Positions 1 to 35,418 of a stretch of 64,000 nt of DNA are shown piece by piece; within the stretch, counting starts at the first letter, position 1, and each line of letters begins with the position of its first letter. The notes under the pieces are model-generated. The model was not told where the DNA came from. It searched no databases and saw nothing but the letters and a program-made list of their open reading frames with translations. The translations under genes and the position numbers were made by a program. The stretch is from a virus, in the IMG/VR virus record IMGVR_UViG_3300009130_001466, positions 48,802-112,801 of that record. The stretch is one strand, 5' to 3'.

Positions 1-2210
1 TTTATTAAAGTATTACTTGATCCCGCTGTAACCGAGGAGTCTTGAGAATTTGTAAACGTATTATCTTTGCCCGCACCAACGTGGGACCTTTGAGAATTTT
101 GCATAAAATTCCCAGTTCCCGCTCCGATTGAAGAATCGTCCGAAAGTTTTATGGAGTTTTCTCTACCAGCGACGACCGTGGAAGCCACGCCGCTCACCTT
201 ATTATTTTCGCCAGCGAAAAGCGTGACAAATTTTCCAGAAGCGGTATTGGACTCGCCGCCCATCAAAACGATTCCGTCGCCCACTAACTGATTTCCGCTA
301 CCCCCGACAAGAACGCTCTTATCTCCGTGAAGGGTATTATTGCTACCTCCGAGCAGAGAAGAGGAAGAGCCAGATACTACATTTTCTATCCCGCCGAGCA
401 AGGAAGAGTAGCTTCCAGTTCTCAATTCATTATCTCTGCCGCCTAAGATAGAAGCGGAAGAAGTGTTTTCTCCGACCAGATTGTTTCTGCCGCCGAGTAT
501 CGAAGAGTTGTTTCCGATAGCTTGATTTAAGAAACCCCCTCCAAGAATGGAGTCCTCTCCGCTCACAATATTTTGAAGCCCCGCCAATATCGCTGCGTTT
601 TCGACATAAACCTTGTTGCGGTTTCCTCCACCGATGAAAGAAGAATTTCCGCTTATGTAATTTTCGTCGCCAGCGGCAATGGAAGATCGGTTAGAGTTTT
701 GAATGTAGTTTCCAGTTCCAGCGGCAATCGAAGAATCGCTTGAGCCGCTAATTTTATTAAAACCGCCCCCTACAATTGCAGAATTAGCAGAACCACTCAG
801 TTTATTTTGATTGCCAGCCCCCAGGAAAGATTCATTTGAACTTATAATTCTATTTCCAGTTCCAGCAGAACTTGAAGAATTATTAGACCCTGATAAAACA
901 TTTTCTTCGCCAGCTAAAATAGAAGACCCAGTTGAATCAGTCAAAGAATGGCTATCACCAGCACCTATCCACGAACTACTAGAATTTAAAACATTATTTC
1001 CAGAGCCAGCTCCTATGAAAGAACTGGGAGAGTTAGAGAATATATTTTCAGACCCAGCACCTATGAAAGAATTATCCGACGTATTTAAATGATTTTGGGT
1101 TCCAGCCCCCAGTAAACTATCACTTGAACCAGAAATTATATTAGATAGCCCCGCACCTAAAGTTGATCTTGGTGAATTTTTTACTAAATTCAAATTACCA
1201 CCGACAAGAATAGCATTATCCGAAACTAAATTGTTTCCACTTCCTCCAACTATAACACTTTTTTGCCCAGAAATGTTGTTGTTTGATCCACCTACAAGAG
1301 AACTTAAAGATCCACTTATTTCGTTGTTTTCTCCGCCAAGAAGAGAAGAGTGGGTTGAATTTTTTACAATATTTTCCTTGCCTCCAACTATTGTAGAATA
1401 ATTTCCCGTTTTTATTTCATTATTATCTCCGCCTAAAATAGCAGATTTCTGACCGTCTATAGAATTTATATGACCACCAGCAATTACAGAACCTTCGCCA
1501 GTAATTGTGTTATTTGTACCCGCTATTATCCCACCTAAATTAGAATTTACTTGATTCCCATTGCCTCCAGCAATTGCAGATCGATCAGAATTTACTATAT
1601 TATTTTGTCCAGCACCTATGAAAGATTTATTGCCAGAAATTTGGTTTTGGCTGCCAGCCGATATAGAGGATTGATTACCTATCAAATCATTTCCAAGTCC
1701 ACCATTTACAGTAGATGAATTTCCAGTAATATGATTTCCAGCACCAGCGCCGATAAAAGAAAAGTTCCCACTTAGAGAGTTATGAGTGCCAGCGGAGATA
1801 AACGAGTCATCCCCTATTAAAGAATTATATGTGCCAACACCAATGGCGGAATAATCCCCACTTAGAAAATTATTATTGCCAGCTAATATAACAGAATAAT
1901 TCCCACTTAAAGTATTTACGTTTCCAGCAAATATAACAGATCCTTGCGAATTTTGAGCCATTTGAAGCTGACCCTCCCCCAAACCAGAAAGCGAATTATT
2001 TTTATAAACAAGCTCTAAACCTTGATAAGTTGGTATAGAATTGAAATTCTTAACTCCAGATATGTTCTGATCGCCAGTTTTTAATACTATTTTGTTTCCA
2101 TCCCAATCTATATCAGATCCATCTCCATTTGTGACTATCGCAGTGTTTGGATCTGAATTCAGTATATAGATATAACTAGAATCTATTCTTTTTCCGTAAA
2201 GGTCTGCCAT
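1..2210 (-). CDS. Gly/Ser/Asn-rich repeat tail fibre or adhesin (beta-helix/YadA-head-like repeats); runs off the left edge
   Basis: Not in the ORF track because it is open-ended. ATG at 2210 (MADLYGKRIDSSY...), then ~14-aa repeats such as SVILAGNNNFLSGDY and SSIAAGTGNYIQNSNR. GTGTAA lies 8 nt upstream. Confidence 0.8.
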   Translation of the reverse strand, partial: MADLYGKRIDSSYIYILNSDPNTAIVTNGDGSDIDWDGNKIVLKTGDQNISGVKNFNSIPTYQGLELVYKNNSLSGLGEGQLQMAQNSQGSVIFAGNVNTLSGNYSVILAGNNNFLSGDYSAIGVGTYNSLIGDDSFISAGTHNSLSGNFSFIGAGAGNHITGNSSTVNGGLGNDLIGNQSSISAGSQNQISGNKSFIGAGQNNIVNSDRSAIAGGNGNQVNSNLGGIIAGTNNTITGEGSVIAGGHINSIDGQKSAILGGDNNEIKTGNYSTIVGGKENIVKNSTHSSLLGGENNEISGSLSSLVGGSNNNISGQKSVIVGGSGNNLVSDNAILVGGNLNLVKNSPRSTLGAGLSNIISGSSDSLLGAGTQNHLNTSDNSFIGAGSENIFSNSPSSFIGAGSGNNVLNSSSSWIGAGDSHSLTDSTGSSILAGEENVLSGSNNSSSSAGTGNRIISSNESFLGAGNQNKLSGSANSAIVGGGFNKISGSSDSSIAAGTGNYIQNSNRSSIAAGDENYISGNSSFIGGGNRNKVYVENAAILAGLQNIVSGEDSILGGGFLNQAIGNNSSILGGRNNLVGENTSSASILGGRDNELRTGSYSSLLGGIENVVSGSSSSLLGGSNNTLHGDKSVLVGGSGNQLVGDGIVLMGGESNTASGKFVTLFAGENNKVSGVASTVVAGRENSIKLSDDSSIGAGTGNFMQNSQRSHVGAGKDNTFTNSQDSSVTAGSSNTLI

Positions 2211-2218
2211 AATCTTAT

Positions 2219-3343
2219 TTACACAAAACTGTTCCAAATAAAGTCATTATGACTGAAAATAGTTCCGTTGTTCTTATTCCAAAGGTAAACAGAGGCGCCA
2301 GTTAATATATTTATATTATTTGCGCCAAAAATTAAATTTGCATCTTCTGATAATTCTGATGAAATAGAGTTACTGAAGTTTTTGGACTGTAAACTTGCTC
2401 CAGAAATATTGACCATGAAGTTTTTGCCATTTATCTTGCCACCACTTATGCTTATATAATAAGTTTCTGAATTTTTTAAAAAATTTAATAAAGAATGATC
2501 GGTTTCTATGTCTGAAACTTTATTTTTTAAAGAAATTTTTCCTAAAAACGGAGGAGTCGCCACCCTTCCCATTGGAAAATATTTATCTATAGAATTTATT
2601 CTTTTTCTGTTAAAATCGAGATTTATGTCGAAAGATTGAATATTATCTGGCTTAATCAAGAAAGAATCTTCTGTTCCTATCCCGCTTATTTTTACATAAG
2701 TATTGTATCCAGCAGTCCACTCTCCCATAAAGTTGGACTCAATTAATTCATCGTATATGCCAGTAAACACAAAATTACCAACTGGTTGTTGATCTCCAGT
2801 TAAATTAACAGATGGAGACTTGCCACTGCTTAATAAATACTGCCCATCGCTACCACTATATTCTTGCGCAATTATATTACTTCCGATGTATGAATAGTCA
2901 CTGGTTAAAATACCACCAACTTTTTGATTTATTTTTACAGAGTCAAGAAAACAATTTCCTATTGAAAGCGAACTCTCATATTGACTAAGAACAGTTCTTT
3001 CTTCGTCTCTACCAACAATAGAATAAAAGTTTTTCCCCCGATTTAAATCTTCACGAAGTTGCCCTCCAGTAAAAACATCTTCAAACAATGTTTCAAAATT
3101 TTCAAGTATAGATAAGTTTACATTGACATCTGGGGCTTGATTTGAATAAATAAAATTTTTCTTTTTTGATCCCACTGAACCCTTACTACTAACTAAATTA
3201 GATCCAAAATCAAAATCAAAACTTTGCACCCCTGGCAAGAAGAACATACCGCTTCCGTTATTCATTTCTTGCTGATGAAACTCATCCTCGCTATAAAACA
3301 AGCAAACATCCGCGTATCTATTTACAAATCTAGACGCACTCAT
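2219..3343 (-). CDS. tail-tube-like tail tip protein (paralogue of 14868..16292)
   Basis: VQSFDFDF and SIGNCFLDSVKINQKVGG align with VQSANYSF and GIGNAFVTDYSLEASVGG of the major tube protein. Confidence 0.6.
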   Translation of the reverse strand: MSASRFVNRYADVCLFYSEDEFHQQEMNNGSGMFFLPGVQSFDFDFGSNLVSSKGSVGSKKKNFIYSNQAPDVNVNLSILENFETLFEDVFTGGQLREDLNRGKNFYSIVGRDEERTVLSQYESSLSIGNCFLDSVKINQKVGGILTSDYSYIGSNIIAQEYSGSDGQYLLSSGKSPSVNLTGDQQPVGNFVFTGIYDELIESNFMGEWTAGYNTYVKISGIGTEDSFLIKPDNIQSFDINLDFNRKRINSIDKYFPMGRVATPPFLGKISLKNKVSDIETDHSLLNFLKNSETYYISISGGKINGKNFMVNISGASLQSKNFSNSISSELSEDANLIFGANNINILTGASVYLWNKNNGTIFSHNDFIWNSFV

Positions 3344-4380
3344 TAAACCCTCCCAAAATCAAAAATATTAAAATTAAAAGAAAAAGAAGAGTTTAGATTT
3401 TGACCCAAAGAAATTGACTGGGAGTTAGAAGATAATCTTGCTCCAGATATCTGAAACTCTTGAGTCTCTGAATTTCCATTTTCAAAACTTAAATTCACTA
3501 CATAAGAATCGTTTGTCTCTAGAAAATCTTTTAGATTAGACTGGGACCCGCTTAAGTTAAATTCTGAAGATATAAAAGATGCAGAAAGTGACCCCTCCGT
3601 AGTATGTATGAACTTTCTTTTTATTGGGTATTTCTTTCCGATTGAAAATATTTTTTTTCTATTAAATGGCATAGATAAGGAAAAATCTTGAATCATGTCA
3701 GCTTTAATTAAAAATATATTTTCTGAGTTAACTCCAGATATCGACAAATTGGTTTTATAAGCTGGGAAAATATCATCTTGAAGATTTGTCTGAGCATTAA
3801 GTAGGCCTTGAACATTCGGAAGGGTTGTTGTAATGATTTGTGATTGATCTCCAGTTAAATTAACAGCTGGGTTATTTATCTCATTTGAGACTATGGTTTG
3901 AGCATTGATATTACTACAAGAATAAGTGTATTTTGATGTTAAAAACTGATTAATAGATTGCGTTAAAGTGAAATTTTCAAGGAAAGCATTGCCAAAATTT
4001 ATGGTTTCATCTGCATCAGAAAAGTCTGAGTAATATTTTTTTTTACCTATCAGAAAATAAAAACTAGCATCTTGATCTAAGTCTTCTAAAACGGCATTGC
4101 CGCTAAAAAATCCAGAGAACATATCTTCAAATGTCTCAAAAATGTTAACATCTAAATTTACATCAACGTCATATCTATTTACGCTTTTTGAATAGAATTT
4201 ATCACCAAGCGTTAGTATATCTTCGGTTTTTGTATTAAAATCAAATGAAAAATCCTGCACCAACGGGACTAGTTTTATAGATGATGCGTCATTAGACCCG
4301 CTTAAAAATGATCCAGCGCCACCCTTCAACAAACAAACATTTTCATATGTTATTGTTGGTCTATTTATATTAGTTGTCAT
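3343..4380 (-). CDS. tail-tube-like tail tip protein (paralogue)
   Basis: VQDFSFDF, FGNAFLENFTL, IQDFSLSMPFNRKKIFSIGKKYP. Start moved to MTTNINRP. Confidence 0.6.
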   Translation of the reverse strand: MTTNINRPTITYENVCLLKGGAGSFLSGSNDASSIKLVPLVQDFSFDFNTKTEDILTLGDKFYSKSVNRYDVDVNLDVNIFETFEDMFSGFFSGNAVLEDLDQDASFYFLIGKKKYYSDFSDADETINFGNAFLENFTLTQSINQFLTSKYTYSCSNINAQTIVSNEINNPAVNLTGDQSQIITTTLPNVQGLLNAQTNLQDDIFPAYKTNLSISGVNSENIFLIKADMIQDFSLSMPFNRKKIFSIGKKYPIKRKFIHTTEGSLSASFISSEFNLSGSQSNLKDFLETNDSYVVNLSFENGNSETQEFQISGARLSSNSQSISLGQNLNSSFSFNFNIFDFGRV

Positions 4381-5413
4381 AATAATAATTATCAAACATT
4401 GCGTCGGATTTAAATTTAATTACTTCATCTAAATTTAATGTAATGTCGTTACAATCTTTATAAACAAATTTATGTTGCAGAGAATTACAAACAAAAAACT
4501 TTCTTTGGTTGTATAATTGAGGCAAGTTTAATTCAAAAGGTTTGTAATCTTCGTGTTTTTCTATAAAATGAATTATTGATCTAGTTTCTTTATTGCTCCT
4601 GTTTTTTAGTGTTAGGGTTAGCCCTTTTATTAATCCAGCATTTGCATCTGTTTTCGCAAAAGAAGAAAAAGAATCTTTTAATTTTACAATTTCAGATTTT
4701 TTGTCTGTAGAAATGGAAACGTTATCGTCCAAATCATAAAAAAATGATCTAGTCCATTTTGAGGCGGTTCCAGTTGGACTATTTGAAGTATTTGATGTAT
4801 GATCGCCGCTACAATAATAAAATCTTTCAATCCTATTGGCCGCTGTATCGAAATTGCTATGCCCTCCAGTATTGTATTGTGGAAAATAAATAACATCAAA
4901 TTTTTCATAATCACTTGAAGACGACCATCCAGTTTGAAAATTTCCAGTATTTAAATACGAAGATGTTGCCCAGTTCAAAAAAGAAGAATATCCATTTTTT
5001 GAAACAACCAAATCTATATCAAAAAGTCCGTCATGAAACCTAAAGTCGTAATTTTCTACATAAAGTTCATTTATTCTTTGATACACATCTCCAGTCGGGA
5101 AAGCTAATTCAACATTATTTATATCAAGTTGATTAAAATCAAAAAACCCCAAACTATTTCTACTAACGCCCTCCAAAAAACTCAAAAAAGATTTAGCCTC
5201 CTCTTCTGTTTTGTTAGAGAATTTTAAATTAAATTTTATTTCTGTCCCGTTTAAACCTTTAGAGAATTTTTTATAATGGTTGTCTGCTGTATAAAAATGC
5301 ACATTTTTATTTTCAAAAGACACGGTGGAGCCATATTCTGGGACAAACGAGTTAGCCTCGATAGTGCCCGTTACGTTATTGTCTCTATCGTAAGTTGCTA
5401 ATACTTCGCTCAT
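4370..5413 (-). CDS. distal/minor tail protein with an inserted small carbohydrate-binding-like module
   Basis: Directly downstream of the TMP. Two similar LxFxN(K/R)(T/S)xxE(A/T) half-domains. Insert WSSSSDYEKFDVIY...YYCSGDHTS...P...W. Confidence 0.55.
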   Translation of the reverse strand: MSEVLATYDRDNNVTGTIEANSFVPEYGSTVSFENKNVHFYTADNHYKKFSKGLNGTEIKFNLKFSNKTEEEAKSFLSFLEGVSRNSLGFFDFNQLDINNVELAFPTGDVYQRINELYVENYDFRFHDGLFDIDLVVSKNGYSSFLNWATSSYLNTGNFQTGWSSSSDYEKFDVIYFPQYNTGGHSNFDTAANRIERFYYCSGDHTSNTSNSPTGTASKWTRSFFYDLDDNVSISTDKKSEIVKLKDSFSSFAKTDANAGLIKGLTLTLKNRSNKETRSIIHFIEKHEDYKPFELNLPQLYNQRKFFVCNSLQHKFVYKDCNDITLNLDEVIKFKSDAMFDNYYYDN

Positions 5414-5415
5414 TT

Positions 5416-8400
5416 TTATGACTTATATAAATAGTTTAGAGTTCCCCCACTTCTAGACTCTTCTTGTATCACTGTCGTGACTGCCGATCTGATTCTAGAA
5501 GCAAACTCTCTTTGGTTCTCTGAAGAGCCCTGGCCGCCTTCTTGACTAACTTTGCCATCTTGTATATTGAAAGTAAAATCTGAGTTATTTGTTATTTCGC
5601 CTCCGCCAAGTGCATTACTTCCAGCCTCTGAAGCAACAGGAGAAACTGCTCCTCCATTTTGAAATCCTTGCATTGGGAGCATACCTTTATTTAGGCTAGA
5701 CAGAAAGTCGGTTCCATATTTATCTACCGCAGATTTCTTAACTACAAATTCTCCAGGGGTTAGCATAGCTGGTACTGTATCTGTTCCTCTACCAACTGAT
5801 CCGCCAGCATTAAAGAAACTGAATAAACTACCCAAGCCACCACTCAAACCACCGAGAAGGCTGCTAAATATTCCACCAATTCCGCTCCCTATTCCACCTA
5901 GTCCGCCGAGAAGGCTACTAAATATTCCGCCGCCACCTGCGCCACCACCAAATAAACCTACGAGACTGTCTTTTAGTCCACCAAATATTCCACCAAGTTT
6001 ATCTTTTAAACCTCCGAATAAATCGCCAAATCCGCTTTTTATTTTACTGAAAAAGCCCTCCTGCCCTTCTCCTTCTTTTCCAGTTATACCCTCTAAAGCT
6101 TTTTCTGCTCCGCTAGTGGCTCCTCCACTTATGGCATTAGCTACATCTTGAACAAATAGTGGATTTGTTGGGCTGCTTCCTAGAGCGCCGCCACCTTTTT
6201 TACCTCCACCAAATAAGTCACCAAAAAACCCGCCAACTTTTGAGAAGAGTCCTCCGCCGCTAGCAGCTGCACCGCTAGCAGCTGCACCGCTAGCAGCTGC
6301 GCCGCCAGAAGCTGCGCCGCCAGCAGCGCCAGAAGCTCCCCCTCCGCCGAAAAGACCACCAATAGATGAAAATATATTTTTTTGACCACCGCCCCCAGCG
6401 CCGCCAAAAACTCCAGTTGGGCCTCCACTAAATAAAGTGTTTGTAAATTGATCTGCGGCTTGTTGTAGAAACGCATCCCTAATGAACCCTAAGAAATTTC
6501 TTCCAGCATCGGATAAAGCCTCATCTAAATCTTTGGCCCCGCTTACAGCATCTTTCATAGCGGAACCCAAATTATCACTAAATTGAAGTGGTATATTTTC
6601 ACCAAGCTCATCTTTAAAAAAATCTATATCGTCTTTAACTTGTCCCAATCCTTTGCTAAATCCATCGGCAAATCCTTGCGGTTTATTAAGGTTATTTATT
6701 TCTTGTTGTAATTTTATTTCTTCTAGCTTGTCGTCCAATACTCTTTGCTGAATTTCTGCCTTAGCTACAGCAAGGTCAAAATCGGTTTTGGCTTTTTTAG
6801 ATAGCTCTATACCAGCCTCGGCAAGCCCCTCTTCAATTGAAAGTAAGCTAGCCCCTGCCTTAACCTGGCCCTCTATAAACTCTTTCTGCTTTTCAGAAAA
6901 AACACTGGCATCTGTGATTGATTTTACGTATTCTTCTGTGATTTTGAATTCTTCTTTAGCTCTTTCTATGAGAAATTCCCCCATAGCTATCTCATTTTCT
7001 AGACCCACTTTCCTTACTGTTGTTACAGCTTTAGCTAAATCAAGTTCTTTGCCTCTTATCGCGGATAAAGCTCCTTCTTGAAATATAGTCGCTCCTATTT
7101 CTCCAGGCTTCGTAGGCTCTAACTGCTTTGTTGTGTCAAATCCACCAGCCGCAAATCTTCCTTCGCCTATGCTTTCTTTAAAGCTTTTTTTTGCTGCAGA
7201 TCCAATTACCCCTTTCTCTCCAAAACCAGATGCAGCTATTAATGCTGCATCGGCGGCTTTTTTGGCGGCGGCATCAATCTGCTCAATAGCTTTGATCATG
7301 TTTTCCGCAAACAAAACTGCATTAAACTCCTTCTCGACTGTAGTTCTTGTTGTCCCACGCCGTGGATTGAAAAATTCCTTCTCAACATCTGTGCTGCTCG
7401 CATCAATGATCTTTTGCAACTCGGTTGTGCTCCCAACTTTTGCCAAAGACGCACTCAATGTTTCTTTATCTTTTACTCCTCCAAAAAATCCTTTATTAAT
7501 TCCTTTTAATCCTTTTACTTGTTTTTCAAGTATATCACCTATATCTGCATCCGCTTCAACATTTAATTTTTTTGCAAGTTCAGCCTTTTCACTTGCTCTT
7601 TTTATCTCCGCAACGAAAGAAGACTTCAAAGCGGCGGAAGCTTCTATTGATCCAGCTGATAACTCTCCCAGATCAATATTTTTAAGTGATTCGTTTAGTT
7701 TTTCGAACCCTGTTTTTGTTTTTGTTAATTCTAGAACAAGCGGAGCCACCACTGCTCCCACAGCTACAGCAGTACCAATTCCAGGCAAAGCTCTACCAAC
7801 TCCAGCTATGCCTCTACCCAGGCCACCCCTAGCTCCCCTCAGTTTGCCCTCTGAACCCCTCATTATTCCACCTGTTCTCGGACTCCGAAAGGTAGCTAAC
7901 TCTGTTCCAAAACTAGACAACTTAGCCCCAACATTTTCAAGCGGCCCTTTCAATAAGCTTAATCCACTTAATAATGATGCGGCTAAACTCACCTCACTGA
8001 TAAACTTCCCAAGACCACTTTCGGCTCCACTAAAAGCAGAGCTTAAGAAAAATAAAGCAGTAGACGCTCCTAGTGCAGCATTCGAAAATTTATCTACAGA
8101 CTCTGTAGCTCCTGCCGTTCCTCTTTTTGCAAAATTAGGTATCCTGCCAGTTGGCTCATCTCTTGTATTAGTGACGGCAAGACCTTGTGGATTTTGAGAA
8201 TTGCGAAGCTTCCCGCTTTGATTTATTCTTATTTGATTGATTGGAAGGCCAGCAGCTTGCTCTCTTGCAACTGCTTCATCCAAAGCTCCACGAGCAAAAT
8301 TTGGGATATAACCTCCAGCACTTCTTCTGTTAAATTCTGCTGTAACGGCTTTTCTACTAGGTCCAGCAACTCTGCTTTTTTGTAGTTCCCCTAAACCAGT

Positions 8401-10836
8401 CTTGGAAACACCCTTGCCTCCAGCGCCAAATTTTTCCATCTTATTGGCCATACTGTTGTATATACGAGTATTACCAGAGATTTTAGCCTCTATAAATCTA
8501 GCCTGGTCAGAGATTCCAGGATATAATTTTGCTATATCGTTTCTGGCCGCACTACCAACAAAATCAAATGTAGCTGTTTGAGATAAATCATATTGCGGGC
8601 TTTTTAATATGGAGCTAATAGCGGCTTCATAAATTACACCAGCCAAAGACGATACAGATCCTCGGTTTCCCAGTTCGTTTATTTTCGTTGCGGCTGGTCT
8701 TCCTCCACTTATTTTTTTAGCTTCTAGATTAGCTAATCCTACACCAAATTTTCCGACAGATTTTACATAATCCTTCGTTTCTCTGCCTTTTATTTGCGCA
8801 TCATTATAGCCCAAAATTGGAAATTGATAACTTTTGCCAGTTTTTGATTTTCCTACAGCGAATTTGCCCAAATTTTTATCTGGAGTAATTAAAGCGAATC
8901 TACGGTCTTGTATTGGAGCTGCTTGCCTCTTTGCAAAATTAGGAATAAATCCACTAGCCGCATTTATCTTTTTCGCCCCACTTGGAAGGCCCATCGACCT
9001 AACCATGTCTTGGTTAAATATAGCATCTCCGCCTCCAGCATAATTAGGAACAAAATATTCACTAGTGTTTGCGACCATTGTGCCACGTTTGCCGCCACCA
9101 AAAGCAAAATTAGGAATTGAAACAACTTTGGAGCTAGACGGGGCGCCACCAACACCACGAGAAACGTCACGAGCTTCGGCAGCAACATAACCATCAGATG
9201 CTCTTCCTTTAGGGGTAACCCCTTTTGTCCCGCCACGCAGTCCAGCACCAAAAAGTCCAGGCGTTACAGTTGCAGCGGCTTTTTGAACCCTAGCGAGCGC
9301 GGCGGCTTGTTGGTTATAAATTTTTAGAAGTAATTGTTCTTGAGCTACCTTATTTCCTTCTAGGGCTAAAATCTCTCTTTGGATACTTTCATTTTGCAGC
9401 AGTGTCTGAAGGACGGACTGTTGAAGCGATTTTTGAGCCTCCGCAGCCTTGTTAATACCAAGCAGGCTTTTTAAGGAACTAGCTCCAAACTTTGCCAAGT
9501 CTACAAATAATTTTACAAATATAGCACTAATTAAAGCTAACCCTGGGCCAGTTAAAACGCCACCTATCCCCTTAACTATGCTTTGTGCGAATTTTGAACC
9601 TATTGAATCTCCCTGCAATAAATCAGTAATCCCACTAACTACAGAAGAAAACACCTTTAAAATATCTTTCGCTGCATCAGTAAAACCCAATTCTCCAACA
9701 ACAGAAGAGAGTTTTTGCGCCCCAACTGTCAAATTATTTATCAATGCTTCTAGCGTATCATTTAATTGGGCGTTTTTTCTATCTAAGGCGCCAGCAGCTC
9801 CAGCGGAAACTTGAAGAGATTTTGCAAACTGACTTTGGCTAGAATTTAAATCTTCGACCAAACTAATTAAAATATCACGCTGGCGAACGCCAGCAACTTT
9901 TTGGATAATCTCTCCAGCCTCAACACTTTTTAAACCAAGCTTGTTGAGCTCTACTGCGAGTTCCTGAAAAAGAGGTATAGCGCTTCTTACATTACCTTCC
10001 ACGTCTACAACATTTATTCCCAAGTCTTCAAGCGCGGCTAATGTATCAGTTCTGCCCAATCTAGCAAAAATGGTTTTAAAAGCATTACCAATAACAGCGC
10101 CGCCACGCTGAGTTCTTTCTTGCACGGTTGTAATGACACCTAAAAGCTCATCAAAAGATACGCCAGCTACACGAGCCGATGCGGAAGCTCGTTCAAGACC
10201 GTTAATCAAATCCTCCGTAGACACAGCGAACTTTGTATCAACTTCGGCTAATTTATCCGCTATTTGAGCTACATTTAAACCAGCGCCTTCAAAACCCTTT
10301 ATCGCTGCAGTCAAACCAGCTACAGCTTGTTGAGAATCAATACCAGCGACGCGAACTAATTTCAAAGAAGTTTCAACACGAGAAAGCGACTCTTCTACGC
10401 TTAAACCCTGACGAGCTAACTCTAAAGCGCCATCGGCCACCTGATCAAAAGATGTCGCTGTTTTTTGAGCTACAGCGAAAATACCATTACCAAATTGTTC
10501 TAATTCTTTTTGGGTCCCCCCTAAAATAGTATTAATTTTTGCAAAAGTAGCTTCTACTCTAATAGTGTTTTCTACTAGCGCCCCAAATGCTTGAGAAAGT
10601 TTATTAATAACAGCAACCGAAGCACCAAAAGCTAAAACACGAGCATTAGAAGCTTCTAATGATTTTTGGAATTCAGTGGCTTGCCCTGTTATTTTTCCAA
10701 GCGGGCGAGATAGCTTTTCAATGGATCGTGCCCCGCTTCCAAAATCAACTCCCTTAGCTTGAGTCTGTATTCTAGCTAAAGCCGCCTCAACCTTTCTTGT
10801 ATTTGGTTCTAAATTTACTCCTACATTTACCGCCAT
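5416..10836 (-). CDS. tail tape measure protein (TP901-like core, Gly-rich C-terminus)
   Basis: 1806 aa, Ala/Gly-rich helical. Motifs ELARQGLS and GGAVIGNAFKTIFARL; C-terminal DTVPAMLTPGEFVV. Confidence 0.92.
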   Translation of the reverse strand: MAVNVGVNLEPNTRKVEAALARIQTQAKGVDFGSGARSIEKLSRPLGKITGQATEFQKSLEASNARVLAFGASVAVINKLSQAFGALVENTIRVEATFAKINTILGGTQKELEQFGNGIFAVAQKTATSFDQVADGALELARQGLSVEESLSRVETSLKLVRVAGIDSQQAVAGLTAAIKGFEGAGLNVAQIADKLAEVDTKFAVSTEDLINGLERASASARVAGVSFDELLGVITTVQERTQRGGAVIGNAFKTIFARLGRTDTLAALEDLGINVVDVEGNVRSAIPLFQELAVELNKLGLKSVEAGEIIQKVAGVRQRDILISLVEDLNSSQSQFAKSLQVSAGAAGALDRKNAQLNDTLEALINNLTVGAQKLSSVVGELGFTDAAKDILKVFSSVVSGITDLLQGDSIGSKFAQSIVKGIGGVLTGPGLALISAIFVKLFVDLAKFGASSLKSLLGINKAAEAQKSLQQSVLQTLLQNESIQREILALEGNKVAQEQLLLKIYNQQAAALARVQKAAATVTPGLFGAGLRGGTKGVTPKGRASDGYVAAEARDVSRGVGGAPSSSKVVSIPNFAFGGGKRGTMVANTSEYFVPNYAGGGDAIFNQDMVRSMGLPSGAKKINAASGFIPNFAKRQAAPIQDRRFALITPDKNLGKFAVGKSKTGKSYQFPILGYNDAQIKGRETKDYVKSVGKFGVGLANLEAKKISGGRPAATKINELGNRGSVSSLAGVIYEAAISSILKSPQYDLSQTATFDFVGSAARNDIAKLYPGISDQARFIEAKISGNTRIYNSMANKMEKFGAGGKGVSKTGLGELQKSRVAGPSRKAVTAEFNRRSAGGYIPNFARGALDEAVAREQAAGLPINQIRINQSGKLRNSQNPQGLAVTNTRDEPTGRIPNFAKRGTAGATESVDKFSNAALGASTALFFLSSAFSGAESGLGKFISEVSLAASLLSGLSLLKGPLENVGAKLSSFGTELATFRSPRTGGIMRGSEGKLRGARGGLGRGIAGVGRALPGIGTAVAVGAVVAPLVLELTKTKTGFEKLNESLKNIDLGELSAGSIEASAALKSSFVAEIKRASEKAELAKKLNVEADADIGDILEKQVKGLKGINKGFFGGVKDKETLSASLAKVGSTTELQKIIDASSTDVEKEFFNPRRGTTRTTVEKEFNAVLFAENMIKAIEQIDAAAKKAADAALIAASGFGEKGVIGSAAKKSFKESIGEGRFAAGGFDTTKQLEPTKPGEIGATIFQEGALSAIRGKELDLAKAVTTVRKVGLENEIAMGEFLIERAKEEFKITEEYVKSITDASVFSEKQKEFIEGQVKAGASLLSIEEGLAEAGIELSKKAKTDFDLAVAKAEIQQRVLDDKLEEIKLQQEINNLNKPQGFADGFSKGLGQVKDDIDFFKDELGENIPLQFSDNLGSAMKDAVSGAKDLDEALSDAGRNFLGFIRDAFLQQAADQFTNTLFSGGPTGVFGGAGGGGQKNIFSSIGGLFGGGGASGAAGGAASGGAAASGAAASGAAASGGGLFSKVGGFFGDLFGGGKKGGGALGSSPTNPLFVQDVANAISGGATSGAEKALEGITGKEGEGQEGFFSKIKSGFGDLFGGLKDKLGGIFGGLKDSLVGLFGGGAGGGGIFSSLLGGLGGIGSGIGGIFSSLLGGLSGGLGSLFSFFNAGGSVGRGTDTVPAMLTPGEFVVKKSAVDKYGTDFLSSLNKGMLPMQGFQNGGAVSPVASEAGSNALGGGEITNNSDFTFNIQDGKVSQEGGQGSSENQREFASRIRSAVTTVIQEESRSGGTLNYLYKS

Positions 10837-32729: not shown

Positions 32730-32838
32730 TGTAATATAACACGCAGATGCTTATAAAGACAACAGAAACGAATAATAGACCACAATCAAGTATTGGGGCT
32801 TTCGTTGTGTAGTTTTTTATAACTCTCCGAATCAACGT

Positions 32839-32870
32839 AGCCCCGACTTGTAAAAAAGTTGGGGTTTTTT
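32839..32870 (+). terminator. intrinsic terminator upstream of the tRNA operon
   Basis: AGCCCCGACTT...AAGTTGGGGTT followed by a T run. Confidence 0.7.
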
Positions 32871-32880
32871 GTTTTTAGGG

Positions 32881-32929
32881 TTGACATTTTATTTTTTATG
32901 TACATAGTGTTTGTTATTGATCTTTGATA
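32881..32929 (+). promoter_or_regulatory. sigma70-type promoter plus boxA-like antitermination element of the tRNA operon
   Basis: TTGACA-N16-CATAGT, then TGATCTTTGATA (rrn boxA is TGCTCTTTAACA). Confidence 0.65.
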
Positions 32930-32950
32930 GTTTATTTTTTGAAATTTTTA

Positions 32951-33022
32951 TGTAGGGAGGTTAGGTAGCCAACGGAGTCTCATAAGCTTCGTGAGCAGGT
33001 TCAATTCCTGCCCCTGCAACCA
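32951..33022 (+). tRNA. tRNA-Met(CAU), possibly initiator-like
   Basis: TGTAGGG/CCCTGCA acceptor, CTCATAA loop, GGTTCAATTCC, encoded CCA. Confidence 0.85.
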
Positions 33023-33027
33023 TTTAA

Positions 33028-33102
33028 GCCCCTATCGTCTAGCCAGGTCTAGGACACTTGGTTTTCATCCAAGCGACTGCGGTTCGAATCCGCATAGGGG
33101 TA
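33028..33102 (+). tRNA. tRNA-Glu(UUC)
   Basis: CTTGG-TTTTCAT-CCAAG anticodon arm; GGTTCGAATCC. Confidence 0.9.
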
Positions 33103-33106
33103 CTTA

Positions 33107-33182
33107 GGTCGCATAGTTTTAATTGGCAAAACAGCTGATTTGTAATCAGCCTTTCTCGGTTCAAATCCGAGTGTGACCTCCA
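33107..33182 (+). tRNA. tRNA-Thr(UGU)
   Basis: GCTGA-TTTGTAA-TCAGC; CCA end. Confidence 0.88.
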
Positions 33183-33189
33183 TTTTTAT

Positions 33190-33264
<75 letters not shown>

Positions 33265-33324
33265 TTTTAACACACCCAGTGATCCTCTTCTTCATTGAAT
33301 GATCATAAAGGCTGGGTACATTTT

Positions 33325-33520
33325 ACACAGGCGGTGTTGAAAGTAGAAACACTGCGTGGGCCAGCGTCCGAGGAAGGCGGAATATCGACTCGGTTAATTC
33401 TATGGCATTTTCGTGACCGTAACTGCAAAACGCGAAGCGCATAGAAGCATGGTGATCGATTGGTAATCGTAAGCCTAGTTCCACAAAGACCGTAATAGGA
33501 GTAACGACCTATCCTGTGTA
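33325..33520 (+). ncRNA. tRNA-like RNA with a ~120-nt branched domain in place of the anticodon loop
   Basis: Acceptor ACACAGG/CCTGTGT+A, D-like GTGTT/AACAC arm, T-like ATAGG/CCTAT arm, internal helices. Confidence 0.6.
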
Positions 33521-33524
33521 TTAA

Positions 33525-33600
33525 GCACCTTTAGCTCAATCGGTAGAGCAGTTGACTTTTAATCAATTGGTTCTGGGTTCAAGTCCCAGAGGGTGTACCA
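33525..33600 (+). tRNA. tRNA-Lys(UUU)
   Basis: GTTGA-CTTTTAA-TCAAT; CCA end. Confidence 0.92.
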
Positions 33601-33607
33601 ATTTTAT

Positions 33608-33684
33608 TGGTTCGTGGTGAAGTGGCCTAACACAACTGGTTTTGATCCAGTCATTCGCAGGTTCAAATCCTGCCGAACCTACCA
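33608..33684 (+). tRNA. tRNA-Gln(UUG)
   Basis: ACTGG-TTTTGAT-CCAGT; unpaired 1:72; CCA end. Confidence 0.9.
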
Positions 33685-33686
33685 CC

Positions 33687-34270
33687 TTGACCCCTAATGC
33701 CTCTCATCTAAGTAGCCTTGATGATATGATGCACACTATAGGTAAAAAAAGCAGAGAACGTACCGCTCTGTCATAGGTCGTCAAATCGGTATCGTGAGGA
33801 GCAAACACGTTAACGTATCCAGCAGTGCAAGTGATGTAGGCTATTGCTCACTGCTGATCAATTTAATAGTTCTGATACTTTTCAAGAAGTATTGGGTAAT
33901 GATCCACCATTCCAAATAGGGGGAAACTAAAAAAGTAGTGTAGAACGTACTAGGATATGAGGCTTGTGGAATAGGCGTTGATTGAGCGGTATGCTGTTAG
34001 ATCGATCATTTGTCATACAAGGTAACTTCTCTACGTCATCTATTGGGTTAACTATTATCAAAGTAGACCTGCCATGCCTCTGAATGACGAAATTCGGACC
34101 TCAAGTGCCGTGAGAGTCGAAAGACTCCTATATCATTCAAGCATAATTTGGCGAAAAAGTATAAGAATCTGATCAAATCTTATATTGGTGTTTAGATTGA
34201 GTTTGTAATTTCTCTGCGACGGCGGGGGTTGATAATGAGGATAAGGACTGCGTAGCGGTCGACTCCCTCA
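33687..34270 (+). ncRNA. large ornate structured RNA (ROOL/GOLLD-like size and context; family unassigned)
   Basis: No ORF; 5'-3' closing helices 33687-33701/34221-34232 and 33703-33717/34187-34201; many nested helices. Confidence 0.7.
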
Positions 34271-34278
34271 CACTTTTA

Positions 34279-34355
34279 GGGCCTGTAGCTTAATTGGTGA
34301 AAGCAGCGAACTCATAATTCGTTGAGTCTCGGTTCAAGTCCGAGCGGGCCCACCA
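34279..34355 (+). tRNA. tRNA with CAU anticodon, probably Ile2 (lysidine)
   Basis: GGGCCTG acceptor typical of Ile2; GCGAA-CTCATAA-TTCGT; CCA end. Confidence 0.85.
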
Positions 34356-34361
34356 TTTTAT

Positions 34362-34433
34362 GTCGCAGTGTTTAAGGTAAACAAGTGGTCTCCAAAACCG
34401 CCAAAGGGGATTCGATTTCTCCCTGCGGCGCCA
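34362..34433 (+). tRNA. tRNA-Trp(CCA)
   Basis: GTGGT-CTCCAAA-ACCGC; GCCA end; atypical D and T arms. Confidence 0.8.
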
Positions 34434-34477
34434 TTTTTAGCTTGACTTTTATTTTTGGGGCAATAGTATACACACTC

Positions 34478-35017
34478 ATGGTAGAAGTTGAAGTTACAAA
34501 ATTCATGCTTGATGAAGCAAATCAAAGAAATAAAAAATTCTATGAAATGTTCGGACATACAGGCACTCACAGATCAAACAAACACAGACAAAGAATAACT
34601 GGTTATCTAGCCGAAGCAGCAATTAGCAACGCTTATGCAGATATAGTTTATGCGGAAGGTCATTCTGTTGATTTTGTTTTAAAAAACTCAGACACAATAG
34701 ATTCCAAAGCTCAAGGGTGCAATGGCAAACCAATGTCTAATTATAGTGCCACCTTATATGAAGAGCAAAAAAATAGAGCCACCGATTACTATATTTTCAG
34801 TAGAGTCAAGAACGATTTTAGCGTTGTTTGGATATGCGGCATTATATCCAAAAAAAAGTTTTTCAAAATAGCTGACTTAAAGAAAGCTGGAACCAAAACC
34901 AATAATTTCACTTATGATCAAAGTAGATATGAAATCGAATATAATCAATTAGCAGATATTGACACTTTTTTGAACTGGCACAAAAAAACAAACGCTCCGA
35001 TAGTTAAAGGGATATAA
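34478..35017 (+). CDS. PD-(D/E)xK-family nuclease-like protein inside the tRNA cluster
   Basis: GYLAE...VDF...IDSKAQ...DYYIF; own TTGACT promoter at 34442; the ORF-track start overlaps tRNA-Trp and was moved. Confidence 0.6.
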   Translation: MVEVEVTKFMLDEANQRNKKFYEMFGHTGTHRSNKHRQRITGYLAEAAISNAYADIVYAEGHSVDFVLKNSDTIDSKAQGCNGKPMSNYSATLYEEQKNRATDYYIFSRVKNDFSVVWICGIISKKKFFKIADLKKAGTKTNNFTYDQSRYEIEYNQLADIDTFLNWHKKTNAPIVKGI

Positions 35018-35068
35018 CCGCTGATTTCTAATCTGCTATTCCAGGTTCGAATCCTGGTCGGAGTACCA
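34994..35068 (+). tRNA. tRNA-Arg(UCU)
   Basis: GCTCCGA/TCGGAGT acceptor, TTTCTAA loop, GGTTCGAATCC, CCA end. Confidence 0.88.
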
Positions 35069-35418
35069 ATTTTAAAAAAGAACTGCAAAACTGTATTTTG
35101 TTATGCGCTAATTGCCATAAGGAAGAACATGAAAGGCTTAGGCAAAAATAGGTCTCGTATTTTTTTGGTTTTTTCTATATGTGGTTCATAGCAGGTGCGC
35201 CGATTCTACCACAAAGGTAGGGGGGTACTTGCGCGAACGTTTCGCCGTTGTTTCAAATCGTGAAAATGTGTTTGGAGATTGAGGAAACTCTCCCCCCCGC
35301 TTGTTCTGTGTTTCTCTGGACACGTTTTTTTGACAATGGGGTAGGGTGTCTGTATAAAACTTTTATTTTTTTTCTATTAGGGGTTGACAACCGCAATGGA
35401 TTCCACATACTGTAAGAC

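Follow-up and report, generated by a model that had tools for sequence, protein, structure and literature searches.

A probable modular noncoding RNA with a compact 3' core in a viral tRNA operon

RNAs of phage tRNA islands and the locus under study

The RNAs C and D of phage T4 (species 1 and 2) are small stable non-tRNA RNAs that are encoded among the T4 tRNA genes and share precursors with them, and to our knowledge their function is still unknown. In phage phi29, two loops of the pRNA are complementary and covary, and their pairing between molecules builds a ring. HDV-like theta ribozymes also occur beside phage tRNAs. The large structured RNAs of phage tRNA islands (GOLLD, ROOL, and T4 RNAs C and D) are conserved and highly expressed, and we know of none with an established function. 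The 3' region of GOLLD is universally conserved and its 5' region less so, and the linker between them sometimes contains tRNAs (PMC12286853). ROOL is a phage RNA of ~580 nt that lies near tRNA islands, is highly expressed and contains multiple pseudoknots, its function being unknown (PMC12286853). In addition, 8495 unnamed candidate RNAs (DNAVirus_X) with sizes of 29–151 nt have been predicted from IMG/VR (Fremin et al., 2023; PMC10690425).

The window analyzed here is a stretch of 64,000 nt from an uncultured marine phage, at the 3' end of an IMG/VR record that is 112.8 kb long and has an estimated completeness of 83%. Its + strand carries a tRNA array, in which both ARAGORN and Rfam recognize tRNAs for Met, Glu, Thr and Asn (32951–33264) and, beyond a gap of 260 nt between tRNA-Asn and tRNA-Lys (33265–33524), for Lys and Gln (33525–33684). 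The CCA end of tRNA-Gln (TTG; 33608–33684) abuts the gap under study, which is 594 nt long (33685–34278), holds no gene and has no ORF above 44 aa. On its other side, a tRNA with the anticodon CAT (Met or Ile2; 34279–34355; ARAGORN and Rfam) begins 3 nt past the U-tract of the module called E below. The ORF-free stretch between tRNA-Gln and tRNA-Ile2 that the preliminary description had reported is thus borne out. The array continues with a weak tRNA (34362–34430; 36.7 bits in Rfam, no ARAGORN call) and, further along, tRNA-Arg. By eye, the anticodon loop of the weak tRNA reads CUCCAAA, which would make it a tRNA-Trp (CCA) whose D arm is unusual. In two close relatives (L009:9110–9192 and L011:6019–6101), the same array has an ARAGORN tRNA whose anticodon is four bases long (ccat), and this tRNA could be frameshift-suppressor-like or a miscall.

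A consensus scan placed a putative sigma-70-like promoter, TTGACA-16-CATAGT (10/12 matches), at 32881–32908 on the + strand, with a terminator-like hairpin just ahead of it (32839–32866), and this site is likely the start of the tRNA/ncRNA operon. The next promoter-like site is found at 34442, and the scan found no + strand terminator-like site between 32881 and 34442, so that the gap lies inside an apparent single tRNA transcription unit. Pfam searches with 10 neighbouring proteins returned just a terminase, an AAA/RuvB-like ATPase and DUF932, none of them linked to the RNA of the gap. Within the tRNA array there is also a 179-aa ORF (34478–35017) that has its own promoter-like site (34442–34469) and no Pfam family above the cut-off; its homologues are found on 17 viral contigs, including contigs of 157–231 kb without the RNA modules. 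The 260-nt spacer at 33265–33524 looks like one more module of a similar system. It is ORF-free and without an Rfam match, is kept in 14 other loci (nhmmer), every time in tRNA arrays, and is covered by one metatranscriptome contig at a depth of 396.

Our preferred reading, to which we give a probability of roughly 85%, is that the gap encodes a real, expressed and modular multi-domain noncoding RNA with a beads-on-a-string anatomy, consisting of the units A1, B, C, D and E with the E pseudoknot as the 3' core. As in the preliminary description, no family could be assigned to it; a new class is probable. The check proposed there, cmscan against Rfam including ROOL and GOLLD, left the gap unassigned: with Rfam 15 at the gathering threshold, tRNAs alone were matched in the whole window, and with permissive filters at E ≤ 10 over 2.4 kb (32800–35200) no match fell inside 33685–34278, tRNAs and chance hits being returned elsewhere. 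The gap has no Rfam 15 match to a group I/II intron, RNase P RNA, tmRNA, OLE or 6S RNA, nor to a known self-cleaving ribozyme, riboswitch or pRNA. A tRNA cloverleaf inside 33685–34278 was found neither by ARAGORN nor by the Rfam tRNA model at E ≤ 10. The ROOL model (RF03087) alone scored 4 candidates in the 112.8-kb record at E ≤ 10 with no match, and the family gathering score of 99.1 bits was not reached; the 14 control genomes were without a match as well, so that they do not inform on the sensitivity of this search. The GOLLD model (RF02032) alone, run at E ≤ 10 over the whole record, scored 27 candidates and reported none, the gathering score being 150 bits. A blastn search of the 594 nt against 50,697 GenBank phage records, T4-like phages included, gave no match, and a megablast search with 8 kb had tRNA-Lys as the sole match. 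No account of a modular A1-B-C-D-E family was found in the literature; module E (85 nt) is within the size range of the candidates of Fremin et al. (2023) and may have been listed there earlier without a name.

The closest likeness in architecture is to GOLLD, which is also a large structured phage or prophage RNA beside tRNA islands. The layout is similar, in that every locus has E but not every locus has the 5' modules B, C, D and A1, and tRNAs flank or interrupt the chain. However, the Rfam model (416 positions) detects no similarity, the core here is only ~85 nt, and E also stands alone as a tRNA-sized unit or precedes protein genes. Because membership in RF02032 failed, GOLLD is treated here as an analogue and not as a homologue. 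The gap resembles ROOL in location and length, with 594 nt between two tRNAs on a viral contig, but it does not match the model, and the 594 nt are a composite of separable domains instead of one conserved fold. The T4 RNAs C and D differ in that no sequence relation was found in GenBank phages and in that they are smaller than the modular RNA described here. The likeness to the phi29 pRNA lies in a covarying 5-bp loop-loop pair in module B, which may form within or between molecules; in contrast, there is no Rfam pRNA match and the genome setting is another.

Module chain and its domains

The homologues were traced from the flanking proteins to related viral contigs, whose spacers were then compared. 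These spacers align with the gap in blocks only, and each of them has kept the last ~85 nt nearly unchanged. A motif of 20 bases within this 3' block was found at 30 IMG/VR loci, 28 of which were true, and a looser two-block pattern retrieved 103 stretches from metagenomes whose record names are marine and estuarine; in total, the homologues come from ~130 contigs of marine viruses and metagenomes. Scanning bacteria and archaea, one genome for each species, for the exact motif gave nine chance hits within coding sequence and one true match, an 11.7-kb contig of a Flavobacteriaceae MAG, from which no firm host follows. Across the records covered, the RNA family is so far found on marine viral and metagenome contigs only.

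The limits of the modules were set by mapping each block of the window on all loci with nhmmer, which gave the five units. They are combined as A1-B-C-D-E (in the gap studied here), B-C-D-E, B-E and D+E; C-D-E also occurs directly 3' of an ORF or as an entire tRNA-to-tRNA spacer, and E alone is the whole of such a spacer in L072, L110, L153 and L162. Other tRNAs interrupt the chain: tRNA-Asn, Met and Gln lie between A1 and B (and E) in L131, L133 and L063, and tRNA-Asn lies between B and E in L119. In IMG/VR, E is found downstream of B in 13/13 contigs with B and without B in 15 of the 28 loci, and a scan for A1 on its own returned one locus only, which was already known. Both B and E are conserved at 75–95% across dozens of otherwise different contigs. 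The gap is a chain of self-contained domains that occur apart or differently combined in other phages.

Further modules were observed in the relatives. Extra unrelated modules are interposed between B and C in L084, L092, L096, L103 and L137, and one such B-C module is conserved, noncoding and ~70 nt long (ATTAGCGTCTTGGCCCTGC...). Another conserved noncoding module, GGCCTTATGGCTG...CCCTCTTTCGCC, lies 3' of E in L035, L092, L096, L103, L112, L140 and L149. An alternative 5' module of ~110 nt, A2, begins with CTTGTCCTAT and replaces or precedes A1 in many relatives (L009:9358–9465, L008:9277–9390 and others). Its 3' end is a hairpin with a T-tract resembling an intrinsic terminator, and RNA contigs still run from A2 into A1. 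In some relatives, ORFs with HNH- or endonuclease-VII-like motifs lie directly 3' of E, and these ORFs and the 179-aa ORF may be linked to module shuffling.

Module A1 (33685–33860, + strand; 14 homologues) is closed by the helix UGACC/GGUCG (33688–33692 with 33776–33780), in which L010 has UA for CG, and contains inner hairpins and a terminal hairpin, CAGCAGUG...CACUGCUG (33820–33856). Its 46 consensus pairs are 96.5% paired across the 14 homologues, and 5 pairs are changed on both sides vs 1.0 in shuffles. A promoter at the 5' end of A1 (TTGACC-16-TAAGTA) was considered and rejected: it failed the scan criteria, RNA contigs pass through it at the depth of the rest of A1, and its first bases belong to the covarying helix. 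The 5' end of A1 (33687–33717) is also complementary to the S1/Pa strands of E (34199–34270), with 26 pairs in 10/10 homologues that have both; this complementarity is without covariation support and, if real, would offer an 'anti-E' pairing as an alternative.

Module B (~195 nt; 33864–34057, + strand) is highly conserved and closed by UAAUAGUU/AACUAUUA. This is the helix TAATAGTT/AACTATTA of the preliminary description (33864–33871 with 34050–34057), paired in 38/38 homologues and nearly invariant. The RNAalifold consensus of the 38 distinct homologues has 68 pairs, 98.5% paired, and 15 of these are changed on both sides vs 3.4 in shuffles (0/500). The loop of the hairpin 33898–33911 (AUCCAC) is complementary to that of the hairpin 33962–33976 (GUGGAAU), which suggests a loop-loop pairing UCCAC/GUGGA (33903–33907 with 33966–33970). 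In L119, the most divergent homologue, the loops are UCACC and GGUGA with two pairs compensated, the support being this single sequence, and one other sequence has a mismatch. An optional insert of ~40 nt is present in L010, L029, L035, L131 and L159.

Module C (34062–34152, + strand) is built on the helix UGCCA-UGC (34070–34077) with GCA...UGGCG (34140–34152) and has an optional sub-domain (34081–34139), which contains TGAATGA/TCATTCA and a GAAA-capped hairpin and is missing in L007, L025, L034 and L043. Compensatory variants of the helix are CTGCCGCGCC with GCGTAATTCGGCG and CTGCTATGCC with TTTAGCG; they were read directly from the sequences and not counted, since at the 5' strand of C the long forms were wrongly aligned with the short ones by MAFFT. 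Three further inner helices proposed earlier stand in the homologues: TGAATGA/TCATTCA varies as AU, UA and UG, and the sub-domain that it encloses is either there as a whole or missing as a whole; for GAGTC-GAAA-GACTC, 92.5% of cells are paired; and CAGCAGTG/CACTGCTG is paired in 11/11. Module D is the hairpin GUAUAAGA/UCUUAUAU (34158–34184, + strand), with a variable loop and a covarying stem (AUAAGA/UCUUAU, CUAAGA/UCUUAG, UUAAGA/UCUUAA and CUAUGA/UCAUAG). The fold z-scores, -1.88 for the whole gap on the + strand (vs -0.49 on the - strand), -1.4 for B alone and -1.2 for C-D-E alone, give weak thermodynamic support.

Module E (~85 nt; 34196–34275, + strand) is the universal 3' core. Its 84 distinct sequences were aligned and then realigned by a covariance model built here (R1), which scores 102.8 bits at the E of the window, the sole match in the genome. 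The fold comprises the helix S1 (34199–34203 with 34261–34265; GAGNU with GNCUC), the hairpin Pa (34211–34217 with 34222–34228), the hairpin Pb (34246–34251 with 34255–34260) and the helix S2 (34236–34240 with 34266–34270), which would form a pseudoknot with S1; the joining strand GGUUGAUAAUGAGGAUAAGGA is invariant. Across the 84 sequences, 96.4% of cells are paired vs 85.9% in shuffles and ~32–52% in slid controls, and the covariation score is 0.298 vs 0.116 in shuffles, reached by 0/500 of them. The variable pair of S1 is UA in 51 sequences, AU in 19 and CG in 14 and is never unpaired, two further S1 pairs are inverted in L048, and 5/7 pairs of Pa are changed on both sides. A U.G pair of S1 is present in 84/84 sequences, and many conserved G.U pairs are possible on the + strand only; the invariant U.G pairs place the RNA on this strand.

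The 3' strand of S1 continues directly into CCUC(A), and its complement, (U)GAGG, lies between the hairpins Pa and Pb and is invariant. The search patterns for E fixed GAGGATAAGG and CTCCC, so S2 and the invariant strand are partly invariant by construction. A scan with the S2 bases left free, run afterwards, yielded one compensated variant (AAGG with CCUU in L168) and one uncompensated mismatch (L169), and G.U intermediates occur in L032, L039 and L136. The S2 pseudoknot of E is plausible but only lightly tested. Downstream of E, a tRNA starts at most 25 nt from CTCCC in 56 of the 139 E copies, mostly at 11–14 nt, and E is also found 16–120 nt ahead of unrelated protein genes, with no single downstream gene family.

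Expression and rival explanations

Part of the gap is contained in 20 public runs, all of them marine or seawater and six labelled RNA. Four RNA libraries, each of a different study, supplied contigs that were mapped to 33200–34500 and span 33686–34284; three of the four date from 2018 and may represent one campaign. The summed k-mer depth is 3000–9000 over B, about 200–3000 over A1 and about 350–4000 over C and D, with 24–111 over the flanking tRNAs and 0–16 over the next ORF; the depths are those of assembled contigs with relatives summed at ≥88% likeness, in which no ends, strand or true abundance can be read. The depth of E is below that of B, a difference in contig depth that cannot rank parts of an RNA. 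Single contigs join A1 to B, run from the terminal hairpin of A1 through B and C-D to E, and reach from D-E just into the start of the tRNA. The contigs of two RNA runs join 34082 to 34135, which represents a natural variant without the sub-domain stretch. There is good evidence that the gap is transcribed and abundant. The preliminary description was to be given up if homologues showed no covariation or if there was no transcript; both covariation and RNA-library contigs were found, and its structured noncoding RNA in a phage tRNA operon is upheld by them.

For the modular RNA that we prefer, the following anatomy and maturation can be proposed. E would be an H-type pseudoknot in which each of the two loops holds a hairpin and the joining strand is rich in purines and invariant. 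On its 5' side there would be optional domains that fold independently of one another, in this case D, C, B and A1. The RNA would be transcribed from the + strand together with the tRNA operon, as suggested by the promoter-like site at 32881 and by the fact that no terminator-like site precedes 34442. The outer ends of the RNA would most likely be cut by tRNA-processing enzymes, with the 5' end set by the 3' end of tRNA-Gln and the 3' end lying just past the U-tract of E, at the RNase P cut that forms the 5' end of the downstream tRNA.

The preliminary description had instead proposed a single ornate RNA of ~550 nt (~550–590 nt), closed by two long-range helices (33687–33717 to 34187–34232) and perhaps dimerizing through TGATCA, which we now regard as clearly unlikely. 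Its outer segments are indeed complementary, and both helices are used in the single-sequence MFE fold. They can still form in all 10 homologues that have A1 next to B (96.8% of cells), which leaves some room for a long-range alternative conformation; however, none of these pairs changes on both sides in the 10 homologues. The outer 3' strands are the covarying S1/Pa strands of E and are invariant in many loci without A1. For UGACC in the 5' strand there is a local partner, GGUCG, and in L010 a CG pair of this helix is replaced by UA. Moreover, 33709–33713 varies (CTAAG, CTCAT, CAGCG, CTACA, CTATA) with its partner unchanged, and tRNAs separate A1 from E in L131, L133 and L063. Comparison of the homologues showed domains that fold locally, not via long-range closure, and that occur separately, with tRNAs between some of them. 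The TGATCA kissing loop is not supported, since the palindrome is not conserved (TGACCG, TGGTTG and TGACCA in relatives). Nor are three of the inner helices: TTGATGAT/GTCGTCAA relies on a 5-nt insertion unique to this window, AATGATC/GATCATT loses to a covarying local hairpin (UA 17, CG 14, UG 7), and GTACCGCTC/GAGCGGTAT has one pair mismatched in 9/10 homologues. At the other extreme, a non-functional spacer of decayed tRNAs or genes or recombination scars would account for the differing module content among phages and for the homing-endonuclease-like ORFs near it in some relatives, but it is scarcely credible in view of the compensatory changes in four modules, the conservation of B and E across dozens of otherwise different contigs and the high cover in RNA libraries.

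Other explanations accept a functional element and differ in its kind. The modules, above all E, might be cis processing or stability elements of the precursor, such as an RNase P leader or a 3' exonuclease cap. This is consistent with the constant position of E at the 3' end of the chain, with the short U-tract that ends it, with the near-fixed distance of 11–14 nt to a tRNA in 56/139 copies and with the lack of ties to a single downstream gene family. The ~20 invariant unpaired nucleotides and the pseudoknot exceed the usual needs of a leader or 3' cap, though, and E also stands ahead of unrelated protein genes at 16–120 nt and B is conserved far beyond a spacer, so that we consider this explanation doubtful. 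A highly divergent GOLLD or ROOL homologue beyond the reach of the Rfam models would share the setting in a phage tRNA island from marine samples, a GOLLD-like layout (PMC12286853) and a length near the 574 positions of the ROOL model. It is very unlikely, given that neither RF02032 (27 scored) nor RF03087 (4 scored) matched the 113-kb record at E ≤ 10, that the permissive cmscan of the 2.4-kb region was equally negative, and that the conserved core is 85 nt compared with 416 positions in the GOLLD model. A small self-cleaving ribozyme that cuts the precursor, like the HDV-like theta ribozymes, is suggested by the compact pseudoknot, the invariant junction nucleotides and the position of E at transcript boundaries beside tRNAs. 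No Rfam ribozyme family is matched, and the strand order taken from the predicted fold (S1, Pa, S2, Pb, S1', S2') differs from that of HDV-like ribozymes (P1, P2, P3, P1', P4, P2'), which makes a ribozyme highly improbable.

Possible function and significance

By analogy with GOLLD, ROOL and the T4 RNAs C and D, for which such a role is suspected, we tentatively propose that the locus yields one or more stable trans-acting RNAs, made together with the phage tRNAs and acting during infection on the translation or tRNA machinery of the host, a role that we hold as possible rather than probable. Transcription along with the tRNAs and release by the nucleases that process them would be the most economical way to make such RNAs. 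The chief alternative to a trans-acting RNA is that E works solely in cis, as a leader or as a 3' cap. A bolder proposal, which we think rather unlikely, is that B and E with their optional modules represent a third class of giant RNA in phage tRNA islands, unrelated to GOLLD and ROOL, in which the loop-loop pairing of B would be intermolecular and build rings or cages, and which would be among the more abundant phage transcripts of coastal seawater.

The A1-B-C-D-E family would be an independent example of structured RNA in phage tRNA islands, and it is apparently very abundant in marine RNA libraries. Its universal core E is very small (~85 nt), sharply bounded and tractable for study, and the optional modules across phages provide a natural 'deletion series'. 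If the layout arose separately from that of GOLLD, the two would point to a common functional demand tied to the expression of phage tRNAs.
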